Assembly: GCF_013315695.1 (NCBI RefSeq)
Contig: NZ_CP054353.1
Source: Escherichia coli
GTDB lineage: Bacteria; Pseudomonadota; Gammaproteobacteria; Enterobacterales; Enterobacteriaceae
DNA length: 64,000 nucleotides
Reading direction: 5' to 3' (one strand)
Shown here: positions 45,814 to 56,248 of the stretch, in pieces
How positions within the stretch are numbered: the first letter of the stretch is position 1
How the letters are laid out: each line of letters begins with the position of its first letter
Position numbers and translations under genes: made by a program
Notes under the pieces: generated by a model
Seen by the model: only the letters and a program-made list of their open reading frames with translations
Told to the model about the DNA's origin: nothing
Database searches by the model: none

Positions 45814-46902
45814 ATGAATAACCGGGAGAAGGAGATCCTTGCAATATTAAGGCGTAACCCGCTGATTCAGCAGAACGAAATTGCGGATATGCTGCAAATC
45901 AGCCGTTCGCGTGTTGCAGCGCATATTATGGATTTAATGCGCAAAGGACGGATTAAAGGCAAAGGTTACATTCTCACCGAGCAGGAATACTGCGTAGTGG
46001 TGGGGACAATCAATATGGATATTCGCGGGATGGCGGATATCCGTTACCCGCAAGCGGCTTCTCATCCCGGTACCATTCATTGCTCGGCAGGCGGCGTTGG
46101 ACGCAATATCGCCCACAATCTGGCGCTGTTAGGCCGCGACGTTCATTTGCTTTCAGTGATTGGCGATGACTTTTATGGCGAAATGCTCCTGGAAGAAACG
46201 CGCCGCGCCGGCGTGAATGTCTCCGGCTGCGTTCGTTTACATGGTCAAAGCACATCGACGTATCTGGCAATTGCCAATCGAGACGATCAAACCGTGCTGG
46301 CGATTAACGATACCCATCTGCTGGATCAGTTGACACCGCAACTACTGAACGGGTCGCGCGATTTACTTCGTCATGCGGGCGTGGTACTGGCTGATTGCAA
46401 CCTGACAGCCGAGGCGCTGGAGTGGGTCTTTACCCTCGCTGATGAAATCCCGGTGTTTGTCGATACCGTTTCAGAATTCAAAGCGGGCAAAATCAAACAC
46501 TGGCTGGCGCATATTCACACCCTGAAACCCACTTTACCGGAGCTGGAAATTTTATGGGGACAGGCGATCACCAGCGATGCTGACCGTAATGCCGCAGTGA
46601 ATGCATTACATCAGCAAGGTGTTCAGCAACTGTTTGTTTATTTGCCCGATGAGTCAGTTTATTGCAGCGAAAAGGATGGAGCACAATTTTTGCTGACCGC
46701 ACCAGCGCATACGACAGTAGACAGTTTTGGTGCTGACGATGGTTTTATGGCGGGTCTGGTATATAGCTTTCTGGAGGGAAACAATTTCCGTGACAGCGCC
46801 CGTTTTGCGATGGCCTGCGCGGCAATTTCACGCGCCAGCGGCAGCTTAAACAACCCTACCCTGTCTGCCGATAACGCGCTTTCATTAGTGCCAATGGTGT
46901 AA
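45814..46902 (+). CDS. yeiI: Sugar kinase with N-terminal HTH domain YeiI
   Basis: 362-aa PfkB-family kinase (GAGD motif) preceded by HTH. Confidence 0.85.
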   Translation: MNNREKEILAILRRNPLIQQNEIADMLQISRSRVAAHIMDLMRKGRIKGKGYILTEQEYCVVVGTINMDIRGMADIRYPQAASHPGTIHCSAGGVGRNIAHNLALLGRDVHLLSVIGDDFYGEMLLEETRRAGVNVSGCVRLHGQSTSTYLAIANRDDQTVLAINDTHLLDQLTPQLLNGSRDLLRHAGVVLADCNLTAEALEWVFTLADEIPVFVDTVSEFKAGKIKHWLAHIHTLKPTLPELEILWGQAITSDADRNAAVNALHQQGVQQLFVYLPDESVYCSEKDGAQFLLTAPAHTTVDSFGADDGFMAGLVYSFLEGNNFRDSARFAMACAAISRASGSLNNPTLSADNALSLVPMV

Positions 46903-49326: not shown

Positions 49327-49602
49327 GTGGCTTCTGTTTCTATCAGCTGTCCCTCCTGTTCAGCTACTGACGGGGTGGTGCGTAACGGCAAAAGCACCGC
49401 CGGACATCAGCGCTATCTCTGCTCTCACTGCCGTAAAACATGGCAACTGCAGTTCACTTACACCGCTTCTCAACCCGGTACGCACCAGAAAATCATTGAT
49501 ATGGCCATGAATGGCGTTGGATGCCGGGCAACAGCCCGCATTATGGGCGTTGGCCTCAACACGATTTTACGTCACTTAAAAAACTCAGGCCGCAGTCGGT
49601 AA
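49327..49602 (+). CDS. insA: IS1 InsA
   Basis: 91-aa protein with CPSC...CSHC zinc finger; recognised IS1 InsA. Confidence 0.9.
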
Positions 49603-50024
49603 CCTCGCGCATACAGCCGGGCAGTGACGTCATCGTCTGCGCGGAAATGGACGAACAGTGGGGCTATGTCGGGGCTAAATCGCGCCAGCGCTGGCTGTTT
49701 TACGCGTATGACAGGCTCCGGAAGACGGTTGTTGCGCACGTATTCGGTGAACGCACTATGGCGACGCTGGGGCGTCTTATGAGCCTGCTGTCACCCTTTG
49801 ACGTGGTGATATGGATGACGGATGGCTGGCCGCTGTATGAATCCCGCCTGAAGGGAAAGCTGCACGTAATCAGCAAGCGATATACGCAGCGAATTGAGCG
49901 GCATAACCTGAATCTGAGGCAGCACCTGGCACGGCTGGGACGGAAGTCGCTGTCGTTCTCAAAATCGGTGGAGCTGCATGACAAAGTCATCGGGCATTAT
50001 CTGAACATAAAACACTATCAATAA
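49521..50024 (+). CDS. insB: IS1 InsB (expressed as InsAB' by -1 frameshift)
   Basis: 167-aa ORF overlapping the insA 3' end in the -1 frame; recognised IS1 InsB. Confidence 0.85.
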
Positions 50025-50194
50025 GTTGGAGTCATTACCTGTTTCCAGTTGCGTTATTTTTTCTACAGCAAAGAAAATTCGACCGGGCCGATGATTGAAT
50101 CTTAACAACAGCGTACGTATGCTAAATATGAGAAATCTCATAGCGGATAAACATCGTGAAAGAAATCCACAATAATGATCTTAAGCAGCAATTG

Positions 50195-50854
50195 ATGAGT
50201 GAATCCGCGTTTAAGGATTGCTTTTCAACGGATGTTTCAGCCGATACGCGGCTGTTTCATTTTTTAGCACGTGACTACATTGTGCAGGAAGGGCAACAGC
50301 CGTCATGGCTGTTTTACCTGACGCGAGGCCGCGCCAGGCTTTACGCCACGCTAGCTAATGGTCGCGTGTCGCTGATCGATTTCTTTGCCGCCCCCTGTTT
50401 TATTGGTGAGATTGAGTTAATCGATAAAGACCATGAACCGCGTGCGGTGCAGGCTATTGAAGAGTGTTGGTGCCTTGCGCTCCCTATGAAACATTACCGC
50501 CCGCTGTTATTAAACGACACGCTATTTTTACGAAAACTCTGCGTTACTTTAAGCCATAAAAATTATCGCAATATTGTTTCTTTAACTCAGAATCAATCAT
50601 TTCCGTTAGTGAATCGCCTGGCAGCATTTATATTACTCTCACAAGAAGGTGATCTTTATCACGAAAAGCATACGCAAGCGGCAGAGTATTTAGGCGTTTC
50701 TTATCGACATCTTTTATATGTTCTCGCGCAATTCATTCACGACGGTTTATTAATTAAAAGCAAGAAAGGATATCTAATTAAAAACAGAAAGCAGTTGTCA
50801 GGACTGGCGCTGGAGATGGACCCGGAGAATAAATTCTCCGGGATGATGCAGTAA
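50195..50854 (+). CDS. yeiL: CRP/FNR-family regulator YeiL
   Basis: cNMP-binding-like domain plus C-terminal HTH; start set at MSESAFK. Confidence 0.8.
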
Positions 50855-50921: not shown

Positions 50922-52172
50922 TCAAGCTAAACCAATAAAGAACCCGGCAATGGTCGCGCTCATCAGGTTGGAAAGCGTTGCTGCTGCCAGCGCCCGTAAA
51001 CCAAGCTGAGCGATTTCCGGTGCGCGTTTTGGCGAAATAGCCGAAAATGCCCCAACGACAACACCGATAGAACCAAAGTTAGCAAAACCACAAAGCGCAA
51101 AGGAGATAATCGCCACGGTTTTCACTTCCAGCGTGCCGCTCGTTTGCAGGTATGGGGAGAAACTCAGGTAAGCGACGAATTCGTTAATCGCCAGTTTCTG
51201 CCCAATCAGGCTACCCGCAAGGTTGGCATCACTCCAGTCCACACCCATGATCCACGCCAGTGGTGCCAACACATAGCCAAAAATACTTTCCAGAGAGGCA
51301 TTGGCGAAACCAAACCAGCCGCCAATTCCGCCGATAATGCCGTTGATCAGCGCAATAATTGCGACAAACGCCATTACTACCGTCGCTACACCAGCGGCGA
51401 TTTTCAGCCCGGTCATCGCACCGCTCGCCGCTGCTTCGATAAAGCTTTTTGGCGGCGTTTCGCTGAACGACAGATTTTCAAATGTGACCTGCGAAGGCTC
51501 GGTTGCCGGGCTAAGAATACGTGCAAACAAAATACCACCAGGGATCGCCATCAGCGATGCCGCTAACAGGTAGTCAATTGGTACGCCCATTCCGGCATAA
51601 CCAATCATCATCGAACCAGCAATGGACGCCATCCCGCTACAAATAGCCGTAAACAACTCGTTGCGATTCATGCGATCGATAAACGGTTTAACGATCGCCG
51701 GGATCTCATTTTGCCCGAGGAAAATAGTGGTAACCGCAACAAAAGATTCGATTTTGCTGATGTTGAGGGCTTTCTGGAAAATGCTGCCAAGGATGCGAAT
51801 CAGCAGCCCCATCACGCCAATGTAGTACAGCAGACTAATGAGCGCAGTGACGAAGATAATCGCCGGGAGTACGCGAAAGGCGAAGATAAAACCCGCACCG
51901 TCAAAGAGGACATCCATTTTCGGCCCAACCAGCGAACCAAAAATGAAGGCGCTACCGGCATCACTGTAAGACATCACTTTATGAACGCCTAATGCCGCCT
52001 GTTCTACCGCCCATTTTCCTGGTGGAAAATAGAGCATGATTCCGCCAATGGCGATTTGTAGCAGCAACGCGGCTCCAACCGTGCGCAAACTGATGCTCTT
52101 TTTATTCACTGACAACAAAAATGCTATTGCCAGTAACACCACCATCCCCACAACACTTCTCATTATATCCAT
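50922..52172 (-). CDS. psuT: Putative pseudouridine/nucleoside transporter (NupC family)
   Basis: 416-aa CNT-family transporter upstream of psuG/psuK; K-12 synteny. Confidence 0.85.
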   Translation of the reverse strand: MDIMRSVVGMVVLLAIAFLLSVNKKSISLRTVGAALLLQIAIGGIMLYFPPGKWAVEQAALGVHKVMSYSDAGSAFIFGSLVGPKMDVLFDGAGFIFAFRVLPAIIFVTALISLLYYIGVMGLLIRILGSIFQKALNISKIESFVAVTTIFLGQNEIPAIVKPFIDRMNRNELFTAICSGMASIAGSMMIGYAGMGVPIDYLLAASLMAIPGGILFARILSPATEPSQVTFENLSFSETPPKSFIEAAASGAMTGLKIAAGVATVVMAFVAIIALINGIIGGIGGWFGFANASLESIFGYVLAPLAWIMGVDWSDANLAGSLIGQKLAINEFVAYLSFSPYLQTSGTLEVKTVAIISFALCGFANFGSIGVVVGAFSAISPKRAPEIAQLGLRALAAATLSNLMSATIAGFFIGLA

Positions 52173-52265: not shown

Positions 52266-53204
52266 TTAACCCGCGAGACGCTGGTATTCTTTGGCAATTT
52301 CGCTCGCCAGAATGGCGTTGTTGAACACCAGTTGGATGTTGGATTTCAGGCTGTCACCGCCAGTCAGTTCAGCAACACGCGCCAGCAGGAACGGTGTACT
52401 TTCTTTACCAATAACGCCCTGCTCTTCGGCTTCGGCGACGGCTTGATCTATGGCTGCATTGATAGATTCCTCCGGCATCGCAAACTGCTCCGGGATCGGA
52501 TTCGCCACTACCAGGCCGCCGTTCAAACCGGTTTGCCATTTCACTGCCATTGCACGAGCGATTTCCGTGGCACTATCAAGGCGAATGCTGACGTCAAACG
52601 GGCTGGTACGGCAGAAAAACGCAGGCAGCGCTTTTGTCTGATAGCCAATTAACGGCACACCGAAGGTTTCTAAATATTCTGTTGTTAATCCTAAATCGAG
52701 AATAGATTTTGCACCGGCACAAACAACGGTGACATTAGTATTTGCCAGTTCTTGCAAATCGGCAGAAATATCGAAGGTATGTTCCGCCCCGCGATGCACA
52801 CCACCAATTCCCCCGGTGGCAAATACTTTAATTCCGGCAAGCGCCGCAATAATCATCGTTGAAGCCACAGTGGTTGCGCCATTTTTTCCGGCGGCAACGA
52901 CAAAAGGTAAATCGCGACGACTAACTTTGGTCACGTTATGCCCTTCGCGACCCAGCAATTCAATTTCTTCTTTGCTTAAACCCACTTTCATCACGCCGCC
53001 AATAATGGCGATAGTGGCAGGTACAGCGCCCTGTTCACGAATAGTTTCTTCAACTTCAATTGCGGTCTGGGCATTTTGTGGGAACGGCATCCCGTGAGAA
53101 ATAATGGTCGATTCCAGCGCCACAACCGGTTTTTTGTTTTTTAAAGCGTCCTGCACTTCCGGGGAAATTTGTAATAATTCAGGGGAAATTTTTAATTCAG
53201 ACAT
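52266..53204 (-). CDS. psuG: Pseudouridine-5'-phosphate glycosidase
   Basis: 312-aa ORF; recognised YeiN/PsuG. Confidence 0.85.
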   Translation of the reverse strand: MSELKISPELLQISPEVQDALKNKKPVVALESTIISHGMPFPQNAQTAIEVEETIREQGAVPATIAIIGGVMKVGLSKEEIELLGREGHNVTKVSRRDLPFVVAAGKNGATTVASTMIIAALAGIKVFATGGIGGVHRGAEHTFDISADLQELANTNVTVVCAGAKSILDLGLTTEYLETFGVPLIGYQTKALPAFFCRTSPFDVSIRLDSATEIARAMAVKWQTGLNGGLVVANPIPEQFAMPEESINAAIDQAVAEAEEQGVIGKESTPFLLARVAELTGGDSLKSNIQLVFNNAILASEIAKEYQRLAG

Positions 53205-54133
53205 TCTGCGTTCTCCACTAACGATATAACGTTGGCAATCGATAAATCGGGGTTATTGGTGTATTCACAGGAGAGCGCCATTGACGAACATCCCTGTGCG
53301 AAACGAACAGATTCGGCAAACGGCATTCCGTCTACCCAACACGAAGCAAGTCCCGCCATCATGGCATCGCCCGCTCCGGTAACATTAATAACATTGGTTT
53401 TGATCGGCGCAGACCAGCCACTTTCACCGCTGATATCGCTGTAATAAACGCCATCGCCGCCCATGCTCAATACCAGTCGGTTCAGCCCATGTTGATGGAA
53501 CCAGGCAGCAACTTTTGCCACATCTTCACGCCCTGACAGCGCAATCCCACTCAGGGTTTCCGCTTCAAGGCGGTTTGGCTTGAGAGTGTGGATTTGATTT
53601 AGACGGTCGCGCACTTTGACACATTTCCACGCTGAAACAGGATCGACAAATACGGGTACGTTGGCGGCATTATCCAGAATCCATGCCAGTGCCTCTTCAC
53701 TGATATTACAGTCCGCGACAATGACCTTTGCCCTCTGAATAAATTCACGGTGCTGTGCGAGATATTCAGCTGTAATAGCGTTGCTAATATTCATGTCATT
53801 TATAGCAACCAGCATTTCACCGGTATTATCGAGTAATGATAAATAGCTCGACGTATTTTCTCCCGGCACAATCAGGCATTTATCGACATAAACGCCAGAT
53901 TGATTGGTTTGCGTTAGCAGCGATTGGCCATAAAAATCACTGCCTACGGCGCTCAGTAGCCAGGCTCTATTACCCAGCAACGCCAGGTTTTGTGCAATAT
54001 TGCGCCCTACCCCACCAGGCGTAAATTTTATTTTACCTGGATTTGAATCCGCATAATTTAATGATTCATGTGAATATCCGGCGACATCAATATTCGCCGA
54101 GCCTATAATTACGACATAATCCTTTTCGCGCAT
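53192..54133 (-). CDS. psuK: Pseudouridine kinase (PfkB family)
   Basis: 313-aa ribokinase-like protein with GAGD motif; overlaps psuG start. Confidence 0.85.
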   Translation of the reverse strand: MREKDYVVIIGSANIDVAGYSHESLNYADSNPGKIKFTPGGVGRNIAQNLALLGNRAWLLSAVGSDFYGQSLLTQTNQSGVYVDKCLIVPGENTSSYLSLLDNTGEMLVAINDMNISNAITAEYLAQHREFIQRAKVIVADCNISEEALAWILDNAANVPVFVDPVSAWKCVKVRDRLNQIHTLKPNRLEAETLSGIALSGREDVAKVAAWFHQHGLNRLVLSMGGDGVYYSDISGESGWSAPIKTNVINVTGAGDAMMAGLASCWVDGMPFAESVRFAQGCSSMALSCEYTNNPDLSIANVISLVENAECLN

Positions 54134-54200
54134 AGCACGTCCTCTGGTAAAAAATTACCAACCCTGTCAATCCACAAGAATATAGATACTGCAAAGACGG

Positions 54201-54236
54201 TTTAAACATGTGTTCATATTTAAACATGTGCTCATA
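54201..54236. repeat. Tandem 18-bp direct repeat upstream of psuK
   Basis: TTTAAACATGTGTTCATA immediately followed by TTTAAACATGTGCTCATA. Confidence 0.5.
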
Positions 54237-54556
54237 GTATGCATGTTTTACGTAAAGTAAATTGCCGCCAGAGAGGCAAAATGGGCAGATTTGAGCAGGC
54301 TCACAAAATGCGATTAAATGCCTGAATTACAAAAACGGGGAATTTGTGACGGGATGCACAGAACAGGAACACTAAAAAAGGGCAGAAATTAATCTGCCCT
54401 TGAGGAAATAACCTTAGTGTTTGATGAAAGTTTCAGGTTTCTACTAAAAGATAAAACCATTTAAATTCATAAAATTACATTCACAAACCGGTCATTCCCT
54501 TTGCGCTCATCCAATGTTACAGGGCAGGAAATTTCTGCCCTGGAACACACCTTTTA

Positions 54557-56248
54557 TTACGCTGCTTTCGCTACTGCGTCCACTTCCGGACGTTTCAGGA
54601 AGGCATAGGCCAAACCCGCCACCAGCGTACCGGCAATAATGGCTACCAGGTAACCCAATACCGGCGTAATCGCGCCAGGGATCAGCAGAACAAACAGACC
54701 ACCGTGCGGTGCCATCAGTTTCGCACCAATCGCCATTGAGATTGCGCCAGTCAGCGCCCCACCCACGATACAGCACGGCAGCACACGCATCGGATCACGA
54801 GCAGCAAACGGAATTGCACCTTCCGAAATGAAGCACAGTCCCAATACCAGAGCGGCTTTGCCACCTTCCTGCTGCGCTTTGTCGAATTTGCGACGCGCCA
54901 CCATTGTTGCCAGACCCATTGCCAGCGGTGGCACCATACCTGCCGCCATAATCGCCGCCATCGGGCCATAGGTTTGAGTACTCAGCAGACCCACACCGAA
55001 CGCGTACGCTGCTTTGTTTACCGGACCGCCCATGTCAGTACACATCATGCCACCGAGGATCGCCCCCAGCAGAACCGCATTCGCAGTCCCCATGGTCTGC
55101 AGCCAGTGAGTCAACCCTTCGAGAATGCCAGCAACCGGTTTACCGATCAGGTAAATCATCGCCAGACCGACCACCAGACTGGAAATTAGCGGAATGATCA
55201 GGATCGGTTTCAGCGCCTCCATACTCTGCGGCAGTTTCAATTGCGTACTGATTAACTTCGCAATGTAACCCGCCAGGAAGCCCGCAATAATACCGCCAAT
55301 GAAGCCAGAACCGGTGCTGACCGCCAGCATACCGCCAATCAGACCCGGCGTGAGACCCGGACGATCGGCAATAGAAAAGGCAATATAACCTGCCAGTACC
55401 GGCACCATCAACGCAAAGGCTGAACCACCACCAATCTGCATCAGCGCCGCAGCCAACGTACCCGGCTCTTTAAACGCTTCGATACCAAAAGCAAAAGAAA
55501 GCGCGATACACAGACCACCTGCAACGACCATCGGCAGCATGTAAGAGACGCCCGTCAGCAAGTGACGGTAAGCGCCTGCACTCTCTTTCTTGCCTTCAGT
55601 GGTCGCTGTTTGAGCTTTGCCCGCTGGTTCATACAGCGTTGCTTCAGCAACCGCTTTATCCAGTTCCTGCGCAGTTTTCTTCAGCGCCAGACCGGTAGAG
55701 GTGCGATACATCGGTTTACCAGCAAATTTCGCCAGATCCACTTCAATATCTGCCGCCACAATCACCAGATCCGCTGCGGCGACTTCTTCAGGGGTGATTG
55801 CATTACCCGCGCCAACCGAACCACGGGTTTCAACTTTCACCCACCAGCCACGTTTTTTCGCTTCGGTTTCAATGGCTTCAGCCGCCATAAAGGTGTGTGC
55901 TACGCCAGTCGGGCAAGCAGTCACCGCAACTACGCGTTTCGGACCGCTGGCGGCAACCGGTGCTGTCGCAGCGACCGGCGCAGTGTAAGGTTTCGCATGG
56001 CCTTTGGCTTCACTCAGGAACAGCTCAGGGTGCGCAACTGCCCGGGAAATATCGCCCAGCCAGACATTTTTACCGTTCAGCGCGCTGTCGTTCGGGATGG
56101 AATCACCGAGAACAATCGCCATTTCAGCGTCGTTCGGATTGTCGATGATTTCCAGTTTTGCTTTTCGCGCCGCCGCGCCCAGCAGGGTCTTCGCCATATA
56201 GGCGCGTGCCTGACCGAGATTAGCGTCAATAATCAGCAGCGTTTTCAT
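54557..56248 (-). CDS. fruA: PTS fructose-specific EIIB'BC component
   Basis: 563-aa; IIB domain followed by multi-TM IIC domain; fruBKA operon context. Confidence 0.9.
   Translation of the reverse strand: MKTLLIIDANLGQARAYMAKTLLGAAARKAKLEIIDNPNDAEMAIVLGDSIPNDSALNGKNVWLGDISRAVAHPELFLSEAKGHAKPYTAPVAATAPVAASGPKRVVAVTACPTGVAHTFMAAEAIETEAKKRGWWVKVETRGSVGAGNAITPEEVAAADLVIVAADIEVDLAKFAGKPMYRTSTGLALKKTAQELDKAVAEATLYEPAGKAQTATTEGKKESAGAYRHLLTGVSYMLPMVVAGGLCIALSFAFGIEAFKEPGTLAAALMQIGGGSAFALMVPVLAGYIAFSIADRPGLTPGLIGGMLAVSTGSGFIGGIIAGFLAGYIAKLISTQLKLPQSMEALKPILIIPLISSLVVGLAMIYLIGKPVAGILEGLTHWLQTMGTANAVLLGAILGGMMCTDMGGPVNKAAYAFGVGLLSTQTYGPMAAIMAAGMVPPLAMGLATMVARRKFDKAQQEGGKAALVLGLCFISEGAIPFAARDPMRVLPCCIVGGALTGAISMAIGAKLMAPHGGLFVLLIPGAITPVLGYLVAIIAGTLVAGLAYAFLKRPEVDAVAKAA

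Follow-up and report, generated by a model that had tools for sequence, protein, structure and literature searches.

The window analysed here, a stretch of 64,000 nucleotides of Escherichia coli DNA (contig NZ_CP054353.1), carries psuK, psuG and psuT on its minus strand, downstream of fruA, and the genes yeiI and yeiL on the far side of psuT. A tandem repeat of two 18-bp units lies between fruA and psuK, 68–103 nt upstream of the psuK ATG. The features on which the argument draws are as follows, in window coordinates:

45814..46902, plus strand: yeiI, just after nfo, encoding a winged helix (residues 1–48) and a PfkB kinase-like domain (58–348); proposed regulator acting at O1 and O2
50156..50854: yeiL, beside psuT, encoding a cNMP-binding domain and a Crp-type HTH
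50922..52172, minus strand: psuT, nucleoside transporter
52266..53204, minus strand: psuG, pseudouridine-5'-phosphate glycosidase
53192..54133, minus strand: psuK, pseudouridine kinase, first gene of the operon proposed to be controlled
54145..54160, minus strand: 5'UTR hairpin TGGTAA-TTTT-TTACCA, adjoining the Shine-Dalgarno sequence
54201..54236, minus strand: 18-bp tandem repeat of two units, on the psuK strand TATGAGCACATGTTTAAA TATGAACACATGTTTAAA, unchanged in K-12 and in Escherichia clade genomes
54203..54216, minus strand: candidate operator site O2, TGAACACATGTTTA, about +12 to +25 from the predicted start and 18 bp from O1
54221..54234, minus strand: candidate operator site O1, TGAGCACATGTTTA, conserved in position across the aligned loci
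54227, minus strand: predicted transcription start (A), 7 nt after the -10 hexamer and derived from the hexamer positions
54234..54239, minus strand: predicted -10 hexamer TACTAT, which is TA(C/T)(T/C)AT in all 10 aligned sequences
54256..54261, minus strand: predicted -35 hexamer TTTACT, inside the conserved block ATTTAC(T/A)TT
54290..54305, minus strand: CRP-like site TGTGAGCCTGCTCAAA, centred about -70.5 from the predicted start
54378..54401, minus strand: terminator-like hairpin with a T-run, ending the fruBKA transcript upstream of the psuK promoter
54557..56248, minus strand: fruA

As sequenced, the repeat reads TTTAAACATGTGTTCATA followed by TTTAAACATGTGCTCATA, two 18-bp units that are 17/18 identical. 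Tandem Repeats Finder (TRF) reports it at 54201–54236 with a period of 18, 2.0 copies, 94% matches and a score of 65, which confirms the tandem 18-bp repeat upstream of psuK that an earlier note on this DNA had described; four TRF arrays in the 64-kb window score at least 50. A scan for adjacent duplicates (period 12–30, at most one mismatch) retrieved two in the window, this repeat and one 12-mer, against a mean of 0.13 per resample in 30 first-order Markov resamples, and an adjacent duplicate as good as this one is not expected to arise by chance. Elsewhere in the operon, the first codons of psuG hold a 21-bp tandem repeat (53157–53196, at the psuK/psuG overlap) that encodes M-S-E-[LKISPEL]-[LQISPEV].

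The term direct repeat, under which the array had been recorded, captures the tandem copies, which are real, but misses the palindromic nature of the units. Within each 18-bp unit there is an imperfect palindrome of 14 bp, which on the psuK strand follows TGAACA-YR-TGTTYA (as sequenced, TAAACATGTGTTCA at 54203–54216 and TAAACATGTGCTCA at 54221–54234), and the repeat therefore consists of two adjacent inverted-repeat sites. The site nearer the promoter, O1, overlaps the last base of the -10 hexamer and the predicted start, spanning about -7 to +7.

This placement is conserved. We aligned ten upstream sequences, drawn from psuK loci of other Escherichia, E. albertii, Citrobacter, Buttiauxella and a Raoultella MAG, and found four blocks conserved amid diverged flanks: the CRP-like core, ATTTACTTT with the -35 hexamer, the -10 hexamer after 16 nt, and the two palindromes, which directly abut the -10. 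All blocks stay in register across the ten upstream regions, and the two units hold the same place relative to the conserved -35 and -10 in at least five enterobacterial genera while their flanks diverge. The CRP-like core TTGTGA-N6-TCA(A/T)A is invariant in the alignment, and in the window TGTGAGCCTGCTCAAA matches nine of the ten core bases of TGTGA-N6-TCACA. The same core is found in a Salmonella locus (L024) and a Klebsiella-like metagenome contig (L025), whose layout is the same as that of the aligned enterobacteria, and in Pasteurella, where it sits about 10 bp closer than the about -70.5 of E. coli as counted from the predicted start; class I CRP sites are centred near -61.5 or -71.5. 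The layout looks like a weak, CRP-dependent psuKGT promoter.

The promoter TTTACT-16-TACTAT has 8/12 consensus matches, and a consensus scanner overlooked it because the score is only that high. That scan returned a single minus-strand match, P1 (TTTAAA-16-TATATT, 54206..54179), which would put the repeat upstream, in the position of an activator site. We rejected P1 because L004, the Z allele and other genera lack its TATATT block or have it elsewhere; TTTACT-16-TACTAT, by contrast, is both conserved and the site of an adaptive SNP. The units do not lie upstream of the promoter but over and downstream of the -10, in the position of a repressor.

The adaptive SNP comes from experimental evolution in two laboratories. 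An A>C change between psuK and fruA swept in five of seven mouse-gut populations, where it was called a psuK-promoter mutation (PMC9509342), and the identical A>C was fixed in three of four long-term stationary-phase populations (PMC7858067). It is annotated as 'intergenic (-126/+297)', with position 2257444 also given, and this A>C at -126 from psuK is the only recurrent psuK/fruA mutation in the gut and stationary-phase studies. Using psuK at 2258355..2259296 in NC_000913.3, it maps to window position 54259 (A on the plus strand); on the psuK strand it is T>G and changes the -35 hexamer from TTTACT to TTGACT. The SNP supports TTTACT-16-TACTAT as the psuK promoter. If a weak promoter is selected for higher output, an up-mutation in its -35 hexamer is the kind of change to expect. 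When uropathogenic E. coli grows in urine, a source of pseudouridine, PsuG ranks with its five most strongly induced proteins (PMC9149909); the psu operon is therefore regulated.

Several further elements occupy the same spacer. The arms of the leader hairpin at 54145–54160 covary, reading TGGCAA/TTGCCA in most other species with a G.U intermediate in E. albertii; RNAalifold did not capture this hairpin, whose stem was misaligned by MAFFT. Two similar GC-rich hairpins (GGGCAG...CTGCCC) lie downstream of fruA, one at 54520–54542, just after the fruA stop, and the other at 54380–54399, about 150 nt on, with a T-run and the look of a terminator. A mechanical 46-aa open reading frame (54227..54087, minus strand) begins at an ATG inside O1, where transcription is predicted to start, and has no conserved counterpart in Citrobacter. 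Gene callers were led astray by the same ATG and extended the HTH-PfkB fusion genes of Yersinia and Serratia by nine codons.

Within E. coli, the K-12-type psuK–fruA spacer (at least 80% coverage required) is present in 4195 of 5426 complete genomes, and a second, E. albertii-like allele, roughly 60% identical to the K-12 type, in 1194. K-12 carries the identical repeat; the 46 bp around it are exact in 3280 genomes, and a further 652 fall in the one-mismatch band, from which the one genome checked has its mismatch at 54199, outside the repeat. The second allele keeps two units at an 18-bp period, diverged in sequence, with ACAT rather than ATGT (plus strand) at the palindrome centres and the half-sites retained. 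Three 18-bp units occur in E. coli KD0845 (L023, NZ_CM143749.1), the sole case seen among about 4200 genomes with the K-12-type allele. The repeat is native to essentially all E. coli, as the earlier note had supposed it might be, and not strain-specific. That note would have dismissed a repeat that was unchanged in all E. coli and had no regulatory function; nativeness holds, and absence of function is contradicted by promoter-locked conservation across genera. The spacer and the psuK 5' end form two deeply diverged haplotypes in E. coli (window 54134–54556; L002 3035–3488), of which the E. albertii-like one carries a REP-like element, and psuK is frameshifted in strain Z1323CEC0015.

Paired palindromes are not confined to close relatives. 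We scored as a pair two matches to RAACANNTGTTY that have at most two mismatches each and at most three in total and lie 18–19 bp apart. Exactly one pair was found in nine of ten loci, each time within 200 bp upstream of the first psu gene, and none elsewhere in 136.6 kb, where 0.2 would be expected. O1 and O2, with one and zero mismatches to RAACANNTGTTY and an 18-bp spacing, form the only pair in the 64-kb window. Beyond the ten-locus test, L025 and Ferrimonas add further examples, the Klebsiella-like L025 having a perfect pair; the Salmonella module (L024) has one perfect site and a degenerate site 2. In Yersinia and Serratia, CA(G/A)AC(A/T)CATGTTTA-AAAA-CAAACAAGTGTCCA comes right after TTTACT-N16/17-TA(A/T)AA(C/A); the Pasteurella pair is CAAACAAAAGTTGA-AAAA-TAAACAGGTGTTGA, and Shewanella, Aliivibrio and Ferrimonas have equivalent pairs with a 19-bp period. 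Equivalent pairs thus precede psu operons in four orders of Gammaproteobacteria, which, with the fixed register relative to the promoter in at least five genera, argues for the earlier suggestion that the repeat marks regulator-binding sites. The exception is Xenorhabdus, whose fusion–psuG operon lacks a clear pair close to the gene. Between the genes of the yeiE..psuK cluster there are no other copies of the motif, and none lies upstream of yeiI, nupX, rihB or psuT; this neither supports nor contradicts regulation by YeiI. Single matches inside yeiE and yeiH fall in conserved coding sequence and were treated as chance.

The gene that travels with the pair is yeiI or its homologue. By Pfam, YeiI combines an HTH_24 domain, which also scores with HTH_11 (the Pfam family that includes the N-terminal domain of BirA), with a PfkB domain, and it has no ROK domain. 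YeiI and PsuK are paralogues that share 39% identity across the entire kinase domain. The candidate operator is 7.3 kb from yeiI in the window, with the psu operon and a nupX-rihB-IS1-yeiL block between them; the IS1 transposase ORF (49521–50024, Pfam DDE_Tnp_IS1) sits between rihB and yeiL, upstream of both divergent genes. In every locus looked up that has an HTH-less psuK and enough flank, yeiI adjoins psuT, and it follows psuT directly in E. albertii, Citrobacter, Buttiauxella, the Raoultella MAG and a Salmonella island. Outside the E. coli/Citrobacter lineage, all eight HTH-PfkB homologues looked up head or adjoin psuG, and six carry the pair, a co-occurrence that can be read directly from the loci. 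YeiI homologues stand in the psuK position in Yersinia, Serratia, Xenorhabdus, Pasteurella, Shewanella, Aliivibrio and Ferrimonas, where the operon runs from the HTH-PfkB gene to psuG and, where present, a nucleoside transporter. One distant homologue, 43% identical and differing in its recognition helix, shows TTGACT-17-TATAAT followed directly by TAAGCATGTGCTTA-ATTG-ATAAGCTTATATTA, the same layout with a changed half-site.

Residues of the kinase domain point in the same direction. Ser30, Asn143 and Lys170 contact pseudouridine and give PsuK its affinity for it (PMC9061257), and their equivalents are invariant in YeiI and in all fusions. The catalytic GAGD motif is intact in PsuK and in the single-copy fusions of Yersinia, Pasteurella and Shewanella, whereas GADD replaces it in YeiI of E. 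coli and Citrobacter, species with a separate PsuK. Among homologues, the HTH is 65–72% conserved as against 38–48% for the kinase-like domain; compared with the Yersinia fusion, the PsuK kinase domain is 60% identical, the YeiI kinase-like domain 48% and the YeiI HTH 70%. PsuK is a homodimer (PMC9247573), which fits a palindromic site; none of the solved structures covers the HTH part. YeiI itself has been listed as an uncharacterised sugar kinase (PMC9061257, 2022; PMC12506659, 2025), and we found no psuK regulator, YeiI function, CRP link or pseudouridine sensor in the literature searched.

Taken with the domain architecture, these patterns suggest a division of labour. Where there is one fusion gene only (Yersinia, Pasteurella, Shewanella and others), its product is probably both the kinase and its own repressor, and in the E. 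coli/Citrobacter lineage the jobs appear to be split between PsuK, without an HTH, and YeiI, with an HTH and GADD. It is conceivable, and we put the chance a little below even, that an ancestral bifunctional HTH-PsuK, regulating itself through the paired operator, was duplicated and split in E. coli, Citrobacter and Salmonella, PsuK being the enzyme that lost its HTH and YeiI a pseudouridine sensor with a disabled catalytic motif. The putative ancestral type would, with the same tentativeness, still be present in Yersinia, Pasteurella, Shewanella, Vibrionaceae and Ferrimonas. In Citrobacter braakii (L014, 5941–6000), the 60 nt leading up to the psuK ATG contain no in-frame stop and align weakly with the winged-helix end of the Yersinia HTH-PsuK fusion; the stretch may be a relic of a lost HTH-coding region. 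In Salmonella enterica (AAOFJQ010000019.1, L024, 8001–12315), yeiI and psuT-psuG-psuK form a compact four-gene module that lies apart from nfo and fruA; a RelB/ParE pair adjoins it and a transposase-like gene is further off, which suggests that the module moves as a unit.

The reading we favour, and hold to be somewhat better than an even prospect, is that the repeat serves as a tandem operator at which YeiI acts as a pseudouridine-responsive repressor. Two YeiI dimers, bound 18 bp apart centre to centre at O1 and O2, would sit over the -10 hexamer, the start and the initial ~25 bases of the transcript and so block RNA polymerase at the -10/start region of the weak psuKGT promoter; the position of the sites is what suggests repression rather than activation. 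Pseudouridine or its 5'-phosphate, in the kinase-like pocket, would release YeiI from the DNA. Because the promoter would also need CRP, at the class I-type site near -70.5, psuKGT would be expressed when pseudouridine is present and glucose is absent. A weakness of the repressor model is the lack of yeiI knock-outs: evolution selected a promoter-up SNP, no yeiI loss-of-function mutations appear in the portions of the supplements of both evolution studies available to us, and a simple repressor usually offers a larger mutational target. Within those portions, the missing knock-outs may mean that promoter strength still limits expression once repression is lifted, or that repression is not the whole of YeiI's role.

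Other readings of the sites deserve comparison. The palindromes may be an operator for a regulator other than YeiI, for instance an unlinked nucleoside or sugar regulator that is conserved across Gammaproteobacteria, the HTH of YeiI-type kinases serving some other purpose. The sites resemble repressor sites whoever binds them, the link between YeiI and this DNA comes from sequence comparison, and the supplements, so far as they were available, list no yeiI mutations; the gene neighbourhood would be compatible with another conserved regulator encoded elsewhere. What makes this unlikely in our view is that the pair tracks the HTH-PfkB gene across four orders and into the relocated Salmonella module, and that in the distant homologue both the recognition helix and the half-site differ. 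Nor, to our knowledge, do the known E. coli motifs of CytR, DeoR, Cra, RutR, NagC and KdgR fit TGAACA-N2-TGTTCA. A more specific candidate is YeiL, a regulator of the CRP/FNR family whose gene adjoins psuT. Proteins of this family bind palindromes as dimers, and an old proposal, reportedly by Anjum et al. in 2000, linked YeiL to nucleoside use. The sites do not depend on this neighbour, however: E. albertii, Citrobacter, Buttiauxella, the Raoultella MAG and the Salmonella island have them with no yeiL adjoining the operon, and so do the fusion-type loci, all of which lack the gene. CRP and FNR sites are TGA-N6-TCA, and O1 and O2, dimer-type palindromes like them, are TGA-N8-TCA, with a half-site spacing 2 bp wider. 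Binding by YeiL is accordingly very improbable.

Two further explanations would dispense with a DNA-binding regulator. Because the repeat lies just after the predicted start, its palindromes could form a 5'UTR hairpin and act in RNA, on mRNA stability, translation or attenuation. The E. coli leader does fold better than shuffled sequences (z -3.4), as does the 43-nt repeat region in Escherichia, Citrobacter, Buttiauxella and Yersinia (z -2 to -5). Any two tandem palindromes would fold in this way, though, and in enterobacteria the DNA and RNA roles are for this reason partly confounded. Outside them the two come apart: in Pasteurella and Aliivibrio the DNA motif is retained with no stable hairpin (z about 0), and Shewanella folds differently. 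With no Rfam match at E<=1 in 53000–55500, and the link to a DNA-binding fusion protein left unexplained, we see only a slim chance that the repeat acts in RNA. Slimmer still is that of a neutral local duplication, made by replication slippage and without function. Slippage makes short tandem repeats, and KD0845 has three units, but the pair has been preserved from genus to genus and order to order while the sequence around it diverged, two units stand in both E. coli alleles though their palindrome centres differ, and copy number is almost fixed, with one variant among about 4200 genomes. Conservation already contradicts this reading.

Regulation by YeiI would have partial precedents. The ROK repressors NagC and Mlc, which act at palindromic sites to turn down operons for catabolism or transport, often in concert with CRP, resemble YeiI in using a sugar-kinase fold with an N-terminal winged helix as a ligand sensor. 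YeiI differs from them in its PfkB (ribokinase-type) rather than ROK fold, in its candidate operator motif and in its predicted ligand. BirA and NadR each unite, in one polypeptide, a pathway enzyme and a DNA-binding repressor of that pathway's genes, and YeiI likewise joins a DNA-binding domain to an enzyme domain whose ligand-binding residues are retained; single-copy HTH-PsuK proteins with an intact GAGD may be bifunctional in the same sense. BirA and NadR control biosynthesis or salvage with a corepressor, whereas a catabolic operon induced by its substrate is proposed here, and in E. coli the roles that they hold in a single polypeptide are apparently split between two paralogues. Having PfkB as its sensor domain places YeiI outside the ROK, BirA and NadR families. 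The promoter itself recalls lac-type class I CRP promoters, with weak -35 and -10 hexamers, a CRP-like site some 70 bp before the predicted start and candidate operators spanning -10 to +25; unlike lac, psuK has two adjacent short palindromes rather than one main operator with distant auxiliaries. We found no description of a YeiI-type regulator–operator pair in the literature searched.

Overall, the repeat is more interesting than it was first rated, because it points to YeiI as a candidate regulator not described before and would explain a recurrent adaptive mutation. The earlier note had given it low priority as possibly native; it is indeed native and fixed in E. coli, a status that does not rule out a function. 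The literature searched does not describe how E. coli regulates pseudouridine catabolism. If the reading favoured here is wrong, the repeat is still a conserved cis-element of the psuK promoter. If it is right, the operator, promoter and regulator of psuKGT would be named, and the SNP that sweeps repeatedly would be explained as a -35 up-mutation on a weak, repressed, CRP-dependent promoter. The natural pseudouridine-responsive switch thus described would be of practical interest for pseudouridine production strains. The locus would also provide an example of an enzyme–repressor fusion splitting into an enzyme and a sensor, and if an ancestral HTH-PsuK was duplicated and split as outlined above, the orphan E. 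coli K-12 gene yeiI would gain a function and a new class of regulators derived from PfkB kinases would be defined.
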